Shown here: positions 3,817-42,378 of the stretch, piece after piece | Layout of the letters: each line of letters opens with the position of its first letter | Numbering within the stretch: the stretch's first letter is position 1 | Assembly: GCF_022846255.1 (NCBI RefSeq) | Contig: NZ_AP025682.1 | Strand: one strand, 5' to 3' | Source of the DNA: Escherichia coli | Lineage (GTDB): Bacteria; Pseudomonadota; Gammaproteobacteria; Enterobacterales; Enterobacteriaceae | DNA length: 64,000 nt | Program-made: the position numbers and the translations under genes | Notes under the pieces: model-generated | Seen by the model: the letters and a program-made list of their open reading frames with translations, nothing else | Databases searched by the model: none | Told to the model about the DNA's origin: nothing

Positions 3817-5511
3817 ATGTCAGATCAACTTCAAATGACAGATGGTATGCATATCATCGTTGAAGCATTAAAACAGAATAATATTGACACTATTTATGGT
3901 GTTGTAGGTATTCCTGTGACGGATATGGCGCGCCATGCCCAGGCGGAAGGCATTCGTTATATTGGTTTTCGTCATGAGCAGTCGGCAGGCTATGCCGCTG
4001 CAGCAAGCGGTTTTCTTACCCAAAAACCAGGGATCTGCCTGACAGTGTCTGCGCCAGGATTCCTCAATGGTTTGACCGCATTGGCCAATGCAACGGTAAA
4101 TGGTTTTCCGATGATCATGATTAGCGGCTCCAGCGACCGCGCGATCGTCGATCTCCAGCAAGGTGATTATGAAGAGCTGGACCAAATGAATGCGGCAAAA
4201 CCGTATGCCAAAGCAGCATTTCGCGTTAATCAGCCGCAGGATCTTGGCATTGCATTGGCACGCGCTATCCGGGTCTCAGTATCGGGTCGTCCTGGCGGTG
4301 TTTATCTTGATTTGCCAGCAAATGTCCTGGCCGCGACGATGGAAAAAGACGAAGCGTTAACCACGATTGTTAAAGTTGAAAATCCGTCGCCAGCATTATT
4401 GCCATGCCCGAAGTCAGTCACTAGCGCAATTTCGCTTTTAGCAAAAGCTGAACGACCATTAATTATCCTTGGCAAAGGCGCGGCGTATTCACAATCTGAT
4501 GAACAGCTTCGTGAATTTATTGAAAGTGCCCAGATTCCATTCCTGCCAATGTCTATGGCGAAAGGGATCCTCGAAGATACGCATCCACTTTCTGCGGCAG
4601 CTGCGCGTTCGTTTGCCCTGGCAAATGCTGACGTTGTCATGCTTGTTGGTGCACGACTGAATTGGTTACTGGCACACGGTAAAAAAGGATGGGCGGCAGA
4701 TACACAGTTTATTCAACTGGATATTGAACCGCAGGAAATTGACAGCAACCGCCCCATTGCTGTGCCAGTCGTTGGCGATATTGCATCCAGTATGCAAGGT
4801 ATGCTGGCAGAATTGAAACAAAACACATTTACGACTCCACTGGTGTGGCGCGATATTTTAAATATCCACAAGCAGCAAAATGCACAAAAAATGCATGAAA
4901 AGTTAAGTACAGATACCCAACCATTAAATTACTTTAATGCATTGAGTGCTGTGCGCGATGTTTTGCGCGAGAACCAGGATATTTATTTAGTTAATGAAGG
5001 GGCAAATACCCTGGATAATGCACGAAATATTATTGATATGTATAAACCACGTCGTCGTCTGGATTGTGGCACCTGGGGTGTCATGGGCATCGGTATGGGC
5101 TATGCCATCGGTGCTAGCGTGACCTCTGGTTCTCCGGTTGTCGCTATTGAAGGTGATAGTGCTTTTGGTTTCAGTGGGATGGAGATTGAAACGATTTGTC
5201 GATATAACCTGCCGGTGACGATCGTTATTTTTAATAATGGCGGCATCTACAGAGGAGACGGTGTTGACCTCAGCGGCGCTGGTGCACCATCGCCAACGGA
5301 TCTGTTGCACCATGCAAGGTATGACAAATTAATGGATGCGTTTCGTGGCGTTGGCTATAACGTCACCACGACAGATGAACTTCGTCATGCTTTAACCACC
5401 GGAATTCAGTCGCGCAAACCGACCATTATTAATGTGGTCATCGACCCAGCAGCAGGAACTGAAAGTGGCCATATTACCAAACTTAACCCAAAACAAGTCG
5501 CTGGTAATTAA
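3817..5511 (+). CDS. oxc: oxalyl-CoA decarboxylase (TPP-dependent)
   Basis: 564-aa ORF with thiamine-diphosphate motif GDSAFGFSGMEIETICRYNLPVTIVIFNNGG; synteny. Confidence 0.95.
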   Translation: MSDQLQMTDGMHIIVEALKQNNIDTIYGVVGIPVTDMARHAQAEGIRYIGFRHEQSAGYAAAASGFLTQKPGICLTVSAPGFLNGLTALANATVNGFPMIMISGSSDRAIVDLQQGDYEELDQMNAAKPYAKAAFRVNQPQDLGIALARAIRVSVSGRPGGVYLDLPANVLAATMEKDEALTTIVKVENPSPALLPCPKSVTSAISLLAKAERPLIILGKGAAYSQSDEQLREFIESAQIPFLPMSMAKGILEDTHPLSAAAARSFALANADVVMLVGARLNWLLAHGKKGWAADTQFIQLDIEPQEIDSNRPIAVPVVGDIASSMQGMLAELKQNTFTTPLVWRDILNIHKQQNAQKMHEKLSTDTQPLNYFNALSAVRDVLRENQDIYLVNEGANTLDNARNIIDMYKPRRRLDCGTWGVMGIGMGYAIGASVTSGSPVVAIEGDSAFGFSGMEIETICRYNLPVTIVIFNNGGIYRGDGVDLSGAGAPSPTDLLHHARYDKLMDAFRGVGYNVTTTDELRHALTTGIQSRKPTIINVVIDPAAGTESGHITKLNPKQVAGN

Positions 5512-34076: not shown

Positions 34077-35174
34077 TTAGAACTGGTAAACCAGTCCTAC
34101 GGCAACGATGTCGTCAGTGCTTACACCAAGTGCTTTAGTGAAGTCGTTTTTGTCAAGCAGGTTGATCTTGTAATCAACGAAAGTAGACATGTTTTTGTTG
34201 AAGTAATAAGTTGCACCTACATCAACATATTTGACTAAGTCCTGATCGCCCCATACTCCAAGATCCTTACCTTTAGATTGCAGGTAAGCAACGGACGGAC
34301 GCAGACCGAAATCGAACTGATATTGTGCAACAGCTTCGAAGTTTTGAGCTTTATTAGCAACGAAGTGATCAGCAAATACAGTCATATTCTGGGTTTCAGA
34401 ATAGGTAGTGGCCAGGTAAATGTTGTTAGCGTCATATTTCAGACCTGCGGCCCAAATTTCTGCATTTTTACCGGAAGCAAATACTTCAGGAAGAACTTTG
34501 CCTGCATTGACTTGAGTGTCGGTACGATCAGATTTCGCATAAGTCGCACCAATGCCGAATCCTTCGTATTCATAGGTAGCAGAGAAACCGAATCCATCAC
34601 CGTTACCTTCGGTGTAGTTATCGAAATCGCTACGATCGTTTTTACCTTGGTACTGAGCAGCAAAGTTCAGACCATCAACCAGACCAAAGAAGTCGTTGTT
34701 ACGGTAAGTTGCAACACCAGTTGCACGTTGAGTCATGAACACGTCGGTTTGAGTCCAAGTGTCACCACCGAATTCTGGCAGGACGTCAGTCCACGCACCG
34801 ATGTCGTATGCTACACCGTAGTTACGACCGTAATCGATGGAACCGTAGTCACCGAATTTCAGGCCTGCAAATGCAAGACGGGTTTTGTCTTTGGCGGAAC
34901 CTTGAGATTCAGCGCGGTTGCCTTTGAATTCATATTCCCACTGACCGAAACCAGTCAGTTGATCGTTGATTTGGGTTTCACCTTTGAAGCCCAGACGAAC
35001 ATAAGTAGTATCACCATCATCTGCATCGTTAGAGGAAAAGTAGTGCTTGGCATTAACTTTCCCGTACAGATCCAGCTTGTTACTGTCTTTATTATAAATT
35101 TCAGCTGCCTGAGCAGACATCGCCATCAGTACTGATGCAGCTACAGCAGAAATTGCCACTGTTAATTTTTTCAT
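34077..35174 (-). CDS. nmpC: outer-membrane general porin (NmpC/OmpC family), apparently intact
   Basis: 365 aa from [11 protein letters not shown]; signal peptide; C-terminal F; long AT-rich upstream region 35175-35716. Confidence 0.9.
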
Positions 35175-35761
35175 CGTGAGCCCTTTTTTTGAACTATTAT
35201 TAAAAAATGATGTCACTGCGCGATAAATATTCATCTAATCAATATGATTATTTCAAGATGTAAGTTTTAGTTTCTCATTTAATTTGTGAAGTAGATCTCT
35301 ATTTTTATCTGAACTTTTTCTATCGAAACCTATTTATGGCTCTTATTTGAACAAAAATAAACCTATTAGCTAATTTATATTAATGGCTGTTATTTATGGT
35401 GGTTCTATAATTCGGAAGTTTAATTTAAATCAACTAAAAATAACGTCGGAAATTATTTATTGGTTATTTGTTGAGGTTTTCTAATGTATTTGTGGTGGTG
35501 TTTTGAACACTCGGTAGCATTCTCATAAATATCATTCAGTGGTTTACGTACGTAAAAAATTGGTTATGCTGTTAAGAGTGGTTACTTCGTCACACAGCTT
35601 AAACCCGCCGTCGAGCTGGTTTTTCCATTTTTTGAGTCTCGATATTAGCTGATAACTCAATACCTGAGTTATTCACTGACTCCGAGTCTGTTACGTTTCT
35701 GCTTTTTTGCGATACGTTGTATTCCCTCAATTTACACCCGCTTTGTCTGCGAGGTGGGGTT

Positions 35762-35977
35762 ATGAAATCCATGGATAAGTTAACAACGGGTGTCGCCTAT
35801 GGCACCTCAGCAGGTAGTGCCGGTTACTGGTTTTTACAGCTGCTCGATAAAGTCACGCCCTCACAGTGGGCAGCAATAGGTGTGCTGGGTAGCCTGGTAT
35901 TTGGCCTGCTGACGTACCTGACAAACCTTTATTTCAAGATTAAAGAAGATAAGCGCAAGGCTGCGAGAGGTGAATAA
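35762..35977 (+). CDS. essD: holin
   Basis: 71 aa from [11 protein letters not shown] with one TM; matches DLP12 EssD as recalled. Confidence 0.85.
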
Positions 35978-36474
35978 TGCCTCCATCATTACGAAAAGCC
36001 GTTGCTGCTGCTATTGGTGGCGGAGCAATTGCTATAGCATCAGTGTTAATTACTGGCCCAAGTGGTAACGATGGTCTGGAAGGTGTCAGCTACATACCAT
36101 ACAAAGATATTGTTGGTGTATGGACTGTATGTCACGGGCATACAGGAAAAGACATCATGCTCGGTAAAACGTATACCAAAGCAGAATGCAAAGCACTCTT
36201 GAATAAAGACCTTGCCACTGTCGCCAGACAAATTAACCCGTACATCAAAGTCGATATACCGGAAACAACGCGCGGCGCTCTTTACTCATTCGTTTACAAC
36301 GTGGGTGCTGGCAATTTCAGAACATCGACGCTTCTTCGCAAAATAAACCAGGGTGATATCAAAGGCGCATGTGATCAGCTACGTCGCTGGACATATGCTG
36401 GCGGTAAGCAATGGAAAGGTCTCATGACTCGTCGTGAGATTGAGCGTGAAATCTGTTTGTGGGGTCAGCAATGA
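35977..36474 (+). CDS. rrrD: phage lysozyme (endolysin)
   Basis: 165 aa, T4-lysozyme-like with N-terminal signal-anchor; matches DLP12 RrrD as recalled. Confidence 0.9.
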
Positions 36475-36914
36475 ACAGAGTAACCACGATTATCTCCGCT
36501 CTGGTTATCTGCATCATCGTCTGCCTGTCATGGGCTGTTAATCATTACCGTGATAACGCCATCACTTACAAAAAGCAGCGTGATAAGGCCGTATCCATTA
36601 TTACTGACATGCAGAAGCGTCAACGTGATGTAGCTGAACTCGATGCCAGATATACAAAGGAGCTTGCTGATGCTAACGCGACTATCGAAAGTCTTCGTGC
36701 TGATGTTTCTGCTGGTCGTAAGTGGCTGCACGTCAAAGCAGTCTGTCCGGACAAGCATAAAACCACCGCCGCCTCCGGCGTGGATGATGCTTCCAGCCCC
36801 AGACTTACTGACACCGCTCAACGGGATTATTTCGTTCTCAGAGAGCGCATCGAAACCATAACTAACCAATTGAATGGCCTGCAAGAGTATGTGAGATCAC
36901 AGTGCTCATATTAG
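36459..36914 (+). CDS. rzpD: i-spanin Rz
   Basis: 151 aa, N-terminal TM then coiled coil; overlaps lysozyme end. Confidence 0.8.
36670..36861 (+). CDS. rzoD: o-spanin Rz1 lipoprotein, embedded in Rz in +1 frame
   Basis: 63 aa with lipobox VVSGC and proline-rich PPPPPAW. Confidence 0.7.
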
Positions 36915-36952
36915 AAAAGTCGTATCATAAGATTTTTGTATATGGATGCATT

Positions 36953-37327
36953 ATGTCTCAATACGCTCACGCCGCTTTAATCGCTTATCATTTGGTTGCT
37001 GATAGCTCAATGCATCCTCGTGATGCATGGGATGCAGCTGTCGCAGAGGTTACGGAAAGCGAATCGTCAAGAAAGAAGATATGCCCACGGGCAACATTTC
37101 TCGCCCTGGCGGATAGCGGTTATCTGAAGAATGTAAAACCACAGCATGGGGAGAGAAAGGGCGGTAAGTTGTATCAAAGGGCAATTGAAGTTGCGAATCT
37201 GATTCTTGATTTACCCGGAATCAGCAAAGCGGAGTTAGTTGATAAAACTTGCTATAAAGACAGGCAAGGGTCTTATGACATTGCACTAACTCTCGCTCAG
37301 CACGGATTACTCCAGCGTCCTCAATAA
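36953..37327 (+). CDS. hypothetical protein between lysis cassette and cos
   Basis: 124 aa from MSQYAHAAL; followed by a hairpin and T-run terminator at 37345-37369. Confidence 0.4.
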   Translation: MSQYAHAALIAYHLVADSSMHPRDAWDAAVAEVTESESSRKKICPRATFLALADSGYLKNVKPQHGERKGGKLYQRAIEVANLILDLPGISKAELVDKTCYKDRQGSYDIALTLAQHGLLQRPQ

Positions 37328-37705
37328 GATATTAAGTGATTTATGGCCTCGCTTTTAGCGGGGCTTTTTCATATCTGAATCTCACCATGCATATCATCAC
37401 CTGACTGGAACGTCAGGAGAATTCGTTACCGGGATTCGATAAAGGTATTCAAGCCTGACACATTATGCGCTGTATCGTCGCCGTATTCCTGCATTAACCA
37501 TGACCGTAGCCCGACGGGAACTCCTTCTGCGTGAGTGTGCGGGAATAATCAAAAACGATGCACACCGGGTTTTTACCGCGTTTATGGTTCGCGGGGGTGT
37601 CCCTCATGCTCGCCAGTCCTGTGCGGGGGTGGAAGAAACAGGACGTGTATTCAGGTCTGTGCGACCGTGGCCGCACGCATTTCTTTTATTGCTTTGAGGT
37701 AGATA

Positions 37706-37914
37706 TGTCAGTAGCTGTTTTCGAGGCACTCAATGCACGTATTAACCAACTTGAAAGTAAGGTGAAGGAATACGAGCAGCGACAGGCTGAGGCAGATGAG
37801 AAGACTCAGAACGAACTTTTCCTGGAGTTTCTTGCCATCGTTCACGAACTGATGCCGTTAGTTAATCAGGCGCTGATGACAGGGCTGAAGGATGGAGATT
37901 TACACAGTAGGTAA
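37706..37914 (+). CDS. hypothetical small coiled-coil protein
   Basis: 69 aa from MSVAVFEALNARINQLESKVKEYEQRQ. Confidence 0.3.
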
Positions 37915-37963
37915 ACCTGATCTTCTGTCTTACGGGTCCTTTCCGGCGATCCGGCAGGCTACG

Positions 37964-37975
37964 GGGCGGAAGGCG
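37964..37975. other. cosN cohesive-end site (variant 12-mer GGGCGGAAGGCG)
   Basis: flanks ACG...CGCGGGTTTTCGCTATTTATGAAAATTTTCCGG match lambda cos as recalled; lambda 12-mer is GGGCGGCGACCT. Confidence 0.5.
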
Positions 37976-38152
37976 CGCGGGTTTTCGCTATTTATGAAAA
38001 TTTTCCGGTTTAAGGCGTTTCCGTTCTTCTTTGCCGTAACTTAATGTTTTTATTTAAAACACCCCCTGAAAAGAAAGGAAACGACAGGTGCTGAAAACGG
38101 GCTTTTTGGCCTCTGTCGTTTCCTTTCTCTGTTTTTGTCCGTGGAATGAACA

Positions 38153-38671
38153 ATGGAAGTCAACAAAAAGCAGCTGGCTGACATTTTCGGTGCGAGTATC
38201 CGTACCATTCAGAACTGGCAGGAACAGGGAATGCCCGTTCTGCGAGGCGGTGGCAAGGGTAATGAGGTGCTTTATGACTCTGCCGCCGTCATAAAATGGT
38301 ATGCCGAAAGGGATGCTGAAATTGAGAACGAAAAGCTGCGCCGGGAGGTTGAAGAACTGCGGCAGGCCAGCGAGACAGATCTCCAGCCAGGACTATTGAG
38401 TACGAACGCCATCGACTTACGCGTGCGCAGGCCGACGCACAGGAGCTGAAAAATGCCAGAGACTCCGCTGAAGTGGTGGAAACTGCATTCTGTACTTTCG
38501 TGCTGTCGCGGATCGCAGGTGAAATTGCCAGTATTCTCGACGGGATCCCCCTGTCGGTGCAGCGGCGTTTTCCGGAACTGGAAAACCGACATGTTGATTT
38601 CCTGAAACGGGATATCATCAAAGCCATGAACAAAGCAGCCGCGCTGGATGAACTGATACCGGGGTTGCTGA

Positions 38672-38697
<26 letters not shown>
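38153..38697 (+). pseudogene. Nu1: terminase small subunit Nu1 with a 1-nt frameshift
   Basis: ORFs 38153-38449 and 38473-38697 together match lambda Nu1; total 545 nt versus 546 expected; missing A near 38391. Confidence 0.75.

Positions 38698-42378
<3,681 letters not shown>

Follow-up and report, generated by a model that had tools for sequence, protein, structure and literature searches.

The slot between the lysis genes and the cos site, where bacteriophage lambda carries bor, raises the question of whether the genes that occupy it in related prophages are bor-like morons or belong to the late operon itself. This question is addressed here for a lambda-like prophage of Escherichia coli, contained in a stretch of 64,000 nucleotides (nt) of contig NZ_AP025682.1 (assembly GCF_022846255.1), hereafter the window. 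An earlier note, made from the sequence alone, had reported two open reading frames (ORFs) between the lysis cassette and cos, here ORF1 and ORF2, and had called their location a known moron position. Our analysis revealed a third component between the two, namely a putative structured RNA element. The features of the interval are the following:

36953-37327, + strand: ORF1, 124 amino acids (aa), DUF6979 family protein (PF22399, phrog_5039), ATG at 36953 and stop at 37327
37345-37375, + strand: predicted intrinsic terminator of ORF1, a stem-loop at 37345-37365 followed by a T-run (terminator scan)
37467-37645, + strand: putative non-coding structured element of about 180 nt (covariance model, 214 bits; RNAalifold; covariation)
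37494-37676, - strand: 60-aa ORF overlying the RNA element, called 'hypothetical protein' in relatives by the Prokaryotic Genome Annotation Pipeline (PGAP) and judged spurious
37658-37690, + strand: terminator-like hairpin GUGCGACC-GU-GGCCGCAC (37659-37676), followed by CAUUUCUUUUAUU (terminator scan)
37705-37914, + strand: ORF2, 69 aa, predicted acidic helical hairpin, last gene before cos (translation and Shine-Dalgarno sequence)
37934-37940, + strand: cosQ-like GGGTCCT of cos; by alignment with the lambda right end and relatives, the cosN nick would fall at 37963/37964
37964-37975, + strand: 12-nt end of cos, GGGCGGAAGGCG, positioned by alignment with lambda

A Probable Mosaic of Three Modules in a Variable Slot

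We consider it probable that this interval is a mosaic of three independent modules (ORF1, the RNA element and ORF2), forming an accessory region at the end of the late operon. The accessory genes located between Rz/Rz1 and cos vary from phage to phage. Related phages carry bor/iss, Rha, DUF4406, phrog_2571, ybcV, ybcW, ylcI, a colicin-immunity gene, Ivy or a TonB-like gene in this slot. In lambda, Rz is followed by bor on the opposite strand, then by lambdap78 on the - strand and lambdap79 on the + strand, an order that bears out the earlier placement of the two ORFs where lambda carries bor. ORF1 occupies the same slot as bor/iss, directly after Rz/Rz1, and is likewise variable between phages.

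Genome counts given here and below refer to 5426 complete E. coli genomes. Only two of them align over the full stretch from ORF1 to cos. The ORF1 gene was found in 247, as a single copy annotated as DUF6979 every time, and ORF2 in nine. ORF1 and ORF2 are unrelated, independently exchangeable modules and not one unit, because ORF2 stays linked to cos and the terminase genes irrespective of the sequence in front of it. It is always located approximately 240-270 bp upstream of the small terminase gene (Nu1), while the sequence preceding it may encode DUF6979, Rha, DUF4406, nothing, or an unrelated lysis cassette (Phage_holin_8/GH108). The RNA element, by comparison, has matches in 3820 genomes (approximately 70%) and occupies a constant place between Rz and cos in the late operons of lambdoid phages, including lambda itself. 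Among 120 loci retrieved from IMG/VR, Rz was found upstream on the strand of the element in all 105 in which it was detectable, and TerL downstream in 67 of 67. The element is also present in Citrobacter, twice in phage PhiR46_1, and in the borD-ybcV intergenic region of the DLP12 prophage of K-12, while the lambda copy lies between bor and lambdap78.

A Conserved, Putative Structured RNA Element Between ORF1 and ORF2

The 377 bp separating the two ORFs appear, from comparative sequence analysis, to hold a highly conserved, structured and non-coding element which is apparently undescribed. The covariance model scored 214 bits at its single copy in the window, 114 bits in lambda (NC_001416, 46869-47034) and 121 bits in K-12 (NC_000913, 579010-579176). 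RNAalifold predicted a long bipartite stem-loop, a middle hairpin and a 3' hairpin, and a second stem crossing the 3' hairpin was added by eye, resulting in an H-type pseudoknot. In this pseudoknot, S1 would pair 37609-37613 with 37623-37627 and S2 would pair 37616-37622 with 37638-37644, with the loop GGUGGAAGAA.

Across 30 distinct sequences of the element, 95% of the cells at paired positions were indeed paired, compared to 36-60% in slid controls. Compensatory changes were observed at 9 pairs, versus 3.8 ± 1.3 in shuffled alignments, and none of 500 shuffles scored as high; when lambda and K-12 were added to the alignment, the covarying pairs amounted to 11. Regarding the pseudoknot, S1 showed compensatory changes at 3 of 5 pairs with 96% of cells paired, and S2 at 2 of 7 pairs with 98% paired. 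The 3' part of the element thus has two crossing helices with covariation in both, as expected of an H-type pseudoknot, in so far as the alignment can indicate. In addition, G-U cells outnumbered A-C cells by 160:12, which suggests that the RNA is read on the + strand, i.e., in the sense of the late transcript.

A number of observations weigh against this structural reading. The sequences of the element are closely related (87% mean column identity), so that the compensatory changes may represent few independent events and the shuffle controls overstate the significance. The structure was derived from the same data that were used for the covariation test, and single-sequence folding of the element was unexceptional on either strand (z = -1.4). 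Furthermore, S1 is not evident in the lambda/DLP12 variant and carries a mismatch in variant L077.

An alternative explanation is that positions 37467-37645 encode protein, either the - strand 60-aa ORF or an N-terminal extension of ORF2, or that they represent a recombination linker acting as DNA and devoid of any RNA function. RefSeq indeed annotates both ORFs in some genomes; its PGAP call of ORF2 is 102 aa long (37606-37914) and starts at an ATG inside the predicted pseudoknot. However, the 57 unique variants of the element range from 162 to 180 nt, carry indels of 1-2 nt and differ in length by non-multiples of three, and no reading frame is open across all of them. The - strand ORF is kept in only 17 of the 57 and is marked as frameshifted in the near-identical prophage of E. 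coli VCSW7. The ORFs overlapping the element have no family matches, and annotation gives the Citrobacter homologs of ORF2 a length of 69 aa. The - strand ORF, which was judged spurious because it overlies the RNA element, and the 102-aa extension were both rejected, since their frames are not kept across the 57 variants, and both calls look like annotation artefacts. Concerning a pure DNA linker, the kinship of the sequences could inflate the covariation statistics, and two copies of the element flank a gene cassette in PhiR46_1, an arrangement that fits a linker. On the other hand, a G-U to A-C asymmetry of this size is unexpected for a DNA site, and base pairing is conserved at 95%, the covarying pairs numbering 9-11 where shuffles yield about 4. 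Taken together, we regard a coding region or an RNA-independent linker as improbable and favor a structured, non-coding element.

The cassette of PhiR46_1 (L026) consists of phrog_2571 (286 aa) and phrog_3054 (149 aa), and the copies of the element on either side of it (2753-2931 and 4536-4715) are direct. This duplication, together with the sharing of the element by unrelated cassettes, suggests that the element may provide homology for cassette exchange.

The element resembles several known RNAs of lambdoid phages, including the put RNAs of HK022, nut/boxB of lambda and the small RNAs AgvB, AsxR, Pas and STnc100, in that it is structured, conserved and read in the sense direction in a lambdoid operon. 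Compared to put and nut/boxB, however, it is positioned between Rz and cos and not beside pL, pR or pR', it is predicted to form an H-type pseudoknot, and it belongs to no Rfam family. Rfam 15 was searched with positions 35200-38700 of the window (E up to 1) and with the lambda copy (E up to 10), and neither search returned a relevant family. The papers searched, including literature on the bor-ybcV region, contained no description of the element. Identity with the prophage small RNAs AgvB, AsxR, Pas, STnc100 or Esr41 was rejected, as these are located elsewhere and are represented in Rfam, which gave no match. Identity with ylcI was also rejected, as the match abuts the 3' end of ylcI and does not cover the gene.

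ORF1 Is a Member of the DUF6979 Family

The earlier note had described ORF1 correctly with respect to its limits and length, but it had found no assignable motif in either ORF. This does not hold for ORF1, which matches the Pfam family DUF6979 (PF22399) at 101.1 bits, the cut-off being 27 (E = 6.4e-29; residues 1-121 on positions 1-127 of the 127-position profile). A match of the same kind was obtained with phrog_5039 (E = 2.1e-71; residues 1-124 on profile positions 1-124), and the name in RefSeq is 'DUF6979 family protein'. An exhaustive HMMER search yielded 234 representative clusters of the family. In an alignment of 66 of its sequences, L52 was invariant, A8, A11, A25, W26, K42, C44, P45, G56, A77, L95 and L114 were conserved in at least 90%, and a conserved C-terminal helix was evident. 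All conserved positions are present in ORF1, including W26, L52, G56 and K42-x-C44-P45 of the K-x-C-P-R motif. Sharing the full profile as well as these positions, ORF1 shows no sequence difference from DUF6979/PHROG 5039.

The ratio of nonsynonymous to synonymous substitution rates (dN/dS) of ORF1, as calculated against 92%-identical copies, was 0.29-0.36, which points to purifying selection. The gene is carried by the inducible and viable lambdoid phages 4A7, D2, 1W, 3W, Lambda_4C10, mEp460_4F5 and SfI, in which it is located at the right genome end, immediately downstream of Rz. The equivalent slot of another lambdoid prophage carries a homolog with 46% identity, after which come a colicin-immunity gene and Ivy.

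The AlphaFold model of ORF1 is compact, all-helical and two-lobed, with a mean predicted local distance difference test (pLDDT) score of 95.7. The modeled fold would consist of two winged-helix-like lobes and may point to nucleic-acid or protein binding rather than catalysis. A Foldseek search of the model against viral structures gave nothing at E below 1. With respect to function, the longer DUF6979-containing proteins carry no second Pfam domain that would hint at one, NCBIfam returned only noise for ORF1, and DUF6979 is absent from the papers searched, the family being also without a solved structure. We conclude that ORF1 is an ordinary accessory gene, a further member of a named but unstudied family. 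A point against our explanation is that the distant DUF6979 homologs occur in heterogeneous, mostly non-phage neighborhoods that offer no functional clue.

In view of its place directly after Rz/Rz1, ORF1 might also be considered a lysis-accessory protein. Its start is only 38 nt past the stop of Rz, on the same strand and with no terminator between them, and the 46%-identical homolog has the same placement. Nevertheless, most phages with the essD/rrrD/Rz cassette lack ORF1, its model is soluble-looking as well as all-helical, and its homologs are widespread outside phages in unrelated contexts. No match to signal-peptide, lipoprotein or membrane-protein families was obtained, although membrane segments were not checked directly. 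Profile searches also gave no match of ORF1 to a lysis family, the kind of assignment that the earlier note had named as grounds for abandoning its view. A role in lysis hence seems very unlikely, and we retain that of an ordinary accessory gene.

Are ORF1 and ORF2 Morons?

Morons in the sense of Juhala/Hendrix are recognized by an own promoter, an own terminator, presence or absence among related phages and deviant base composition. According to this explanation, ORF1 and ORF2 would resemble bor in being transcribed autonomously in the lysogen and in changing the properties of the host, for example through serum resistance or phage exclusion. In its favor, genes of this type (bor/iss, colicin immunity, Ivy) are concentrated in the slot, and each of the two ORFs occurs in some prophages and is missing from others that are otherwise similar and have lysis and cos backbones in common. 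ORF1 also has a terminator of its own, since the hairpin and T-run reported after it were recovered by the terminator scan. The stem has 9 pairs (6 of them G-C) and a loop of 3 nt, the tail being TTTTTCAT / TTTTTCATATC, and the structure was unchanged in all six aligned relatives.

The remaining features argue the other way. A crude consensus scan detected no + strand promoter-like site upstream of ORF1 or ORF2. In the case of ORF2, the terminator-like hairpin lies 27 nt before the start codon and leaves no room for a promoter. While bor is an outer-membrane lipoprotein gene with its own promoter on the opposite strand, both ORFs are co-oriented with the late operon. The G+C content of ORF1 (0.468) and ORF2 (0.469) matches that of the lysis genes (0.474). 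Neither ORF1 nor ORF2 had a Pfam or NCBIfam match to the Bor family or to signal-peptide and lipoprotein families, signal peptides and lipoboxes not having been searched directly, and the PADLOC-DB 2.0 defence profiles gave no match at E up to 1 for ORF1, ORF2 or the - strand ORF. It should be taken into account that a weak or non-sigma-70 promoter may escape a crude consensus scan, a point that counts against assigning the ORFs to the late transcript. Overall, we find it unlikely that ORF1 and ORF2 are bor-like morons. Of the moron position proposed for them, what stands is the variable accessory slot, whereas expression in the lysogen finds little support, and a mosaic accessory region of the late operon is preferred.

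The sole + strand promoter-like site of the region is situated at 37368-37397 (TTCATA, spacer of 18 nt, TATCAT; 9 of 12 matches). It lies just past the ORF1 terminator and approximately 70 nt upstream of the RNA element, outside the conserved element itself. This site could drive independent transcription of the element in phages carrying DUF6979.

ORF2 and the phrog_2571 Family

Concerning ORF2, the earlier note gave the correct length of 69 aa but a start at 37706, from which the stretch up to 37914 translates with 7 stops; the 69-aa frame starts at 37705. It is preceded by the Shine-Dalgarno sequence GAGG (37696-37699), 5 nt upstream of the ATG. The description of the protein as a coiled coil was roughly right, the AlphaFold model being a two-helix hairpin (residues 2-25 and 32-68) with a mean pLDDT of 85.6 and low confidence for the last 9 residues. 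Its location immediately before cos was confirmed, with the stop 19 nt upstream of cosQ and 49 nt upstream of the presumed cosN nick; no terminator was found between ORF2 and cos in the terminator scan. Besides E. coli, ORF2 is present in Citrobacter prophages, where the protein is 87-90% identical.

Residues 12-59 of ORF2 align with residues 6-56 of the 286-aa protein of PhiR46_1 (39% identity, E = 9e-10, BLASTP). The latter matches phrog_2571 over positions 1-291 (E = 7e-164), whereas ORF2 matches it only at profile positions 12-57 of 291 (E = 1.3e-6). With the PHROG 2571 proteins (PhiR46_1; E. coli F1053, WP_106788338.1) ORF2 shares the motif QNELxxEFxxIVxELMPxVNxxLMT, and the 286-aa genes have the same RNA element and hairpin upstream. 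In contrast, the C-terminal 220 residues are missing from ORF2, and the long form is followed by the phrog_3054 gene and a second copy of the element, unlike ORF2. A tblastn search of ORF2 against phages retrieved only PhiR46_1 and YDC107_1. Weak Pfam matches (ABC_tran_CTD, XhlA and others) were rejected as coiled-coil noise under the thresholds; that to XhlA (PF10779) reached 15 bits versus the required 34.7 (E = 0.029) and covered 28 coiled-coil residues only. On the basis of these similarities, ORF2 appears to correspond to the N-terminal domain of phrog_2571 proteins, either as a truncation product or as a domain that stands alone.

The ORF2 segment of 240 bp stands in for approximately 40 bp of most relatives. 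Relatives lacking ORF2 become homologous again from GTAAACC onwards, and the stop codon of ORF2 is part of this sequence, indicating that the 3' end of ORF2 is a junction and that its stop is supplied by the shared cos-proximal sequence. Most likely, ORF2 arose by a deletion that joined codon ~66 to this sequence, and it is possibly vestigial.

ORF2 could be a decaying, non-functional 5' fragment of a phrog_2571-type gene, left open by chance after a deletion reaching to cos. The rarity of ORF2 (9 of 5426) fits such a remnant, as do its match to only the first ~56 residues of the 286-aa protein, the many broken fragments of the long form found in the database, the junction at its 3' end and the low confidence of its modeled last residues. 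However, each of the 15 E. coli and Citrobacter copies examined encodes an intact ORF2 of 69 aa, although there are 14-16 nucleotide differences, about half of them synonymous (dN/dS 0.25-0.33, binomial p about 0.01-0.02). The Shine-Dalgarno sequence of ORF2 is good, and its frame is the sole open one of six. A second short form, of 67 aa, was seen on at least 24 contigs and is found at the same position in other phages; in other Citrobacter prophages it lies just before a DUF1441-type small terminase gene. Thus, a dead remnant is conceivable but doubtful, and ORF2 is probably still translated from the late transcript. Two points speak against the view that ORF2 is a truncation: the direction of change could be either truncation or fusion giving rise to the long form, and the weak purifying selection suggested by the substitutions argues against a dead remnant.

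ORF2 also resembles lambdap79/YbcW of lambda and DLP12 in size (68 aa), strand and position as the last ORF before cos. Nonetheless, no sequence similarity was detected between them by BLASTP at E up to 100, and lambdap79 lies 558 bp from the right end of lambda, in contrast to 49 nt for ORF2.

The hairpin at 37659-37676 is followed by a T-rich tract and then directly by the ribosome-binding site of ORF2. Citrobacter copies keep the hairpin through a double change from G-C to A-U as well as through G-U changes. A terminator-like hairpin was found in only a subset of the copies of the element.

Transcription of the Interval and Possible Roles of the Element

Late transcription in lambda starts from pR', is made terminator-resistant by Q, and proceeds through the lysis genes and across cos into the head genes. 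Given their common strand and the lack of detected promoters, ORF1, the element and ORF2 would most simply be parts of the Q-antiterminated pR' late transcript. ORF1 would then most likely be a dispensable accessory protein that is made late. The two terminators would be relevant only to RNA polymerase not modified by Q. In lambda, a CRISPR interference screen scored the + strand gene lambdap79 as essential, but not bor and p78 (PMC10695390). We interpret this result as a polar effect, consistent with late transcription crossing the region.

The element may have a cis-acting role in the late transcript, affecting its processing, its stability or the control of read-through, as suggested by its fixed location at the boundary between lysis and morphogenesis genes. 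As a sequence shared by many phages, it may in addition serve as a recombination linker for the swapping of accessory cassettes. The stronger proposal, that the element is a functionally important cis-acting pseudoknot RNA which controls the late transcript of more than 20 kb and acts as a leader or attenuator for ORF2-family genes where the hairpin follows, is put forward only tentatively, and we think it less likely than not to be correct.

The two ORFs add little by themselves, and their value lies mainly in the correction of annotation, namely the start of ORF2, its length of 69 instead of 102 aa and the spurious - strand ORF. If functional, the element would add a new signal for regulation or processing to the late transcription of lambdoid phages, and it would explain cassette exchange at this position, including that of the virulence-linked bor/iss. 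The element is worthy of attention because the majority of E. coli genomes carry it, as does lambda, whose genome is among the best studied.

Gene Context of the Prophage

The gene order around the interval was established from the ORFs of the window and the RefSeq annotation of the VCSW7 prophage:

34077-35234, - strand: ompC/nmpC-like porin gene
35762-35977: essD-type holin gene
35977-36474: RrrD lysozyme gene
36471-36914: Rz, with Rz1 embedded within it
from 38153: Nu1 (small terminase)
38672-40597: large terminase gene

The OmpC/NmpC-like porin gene is located between the Q region and the holin gene, an arrangement also seen in DLP12.

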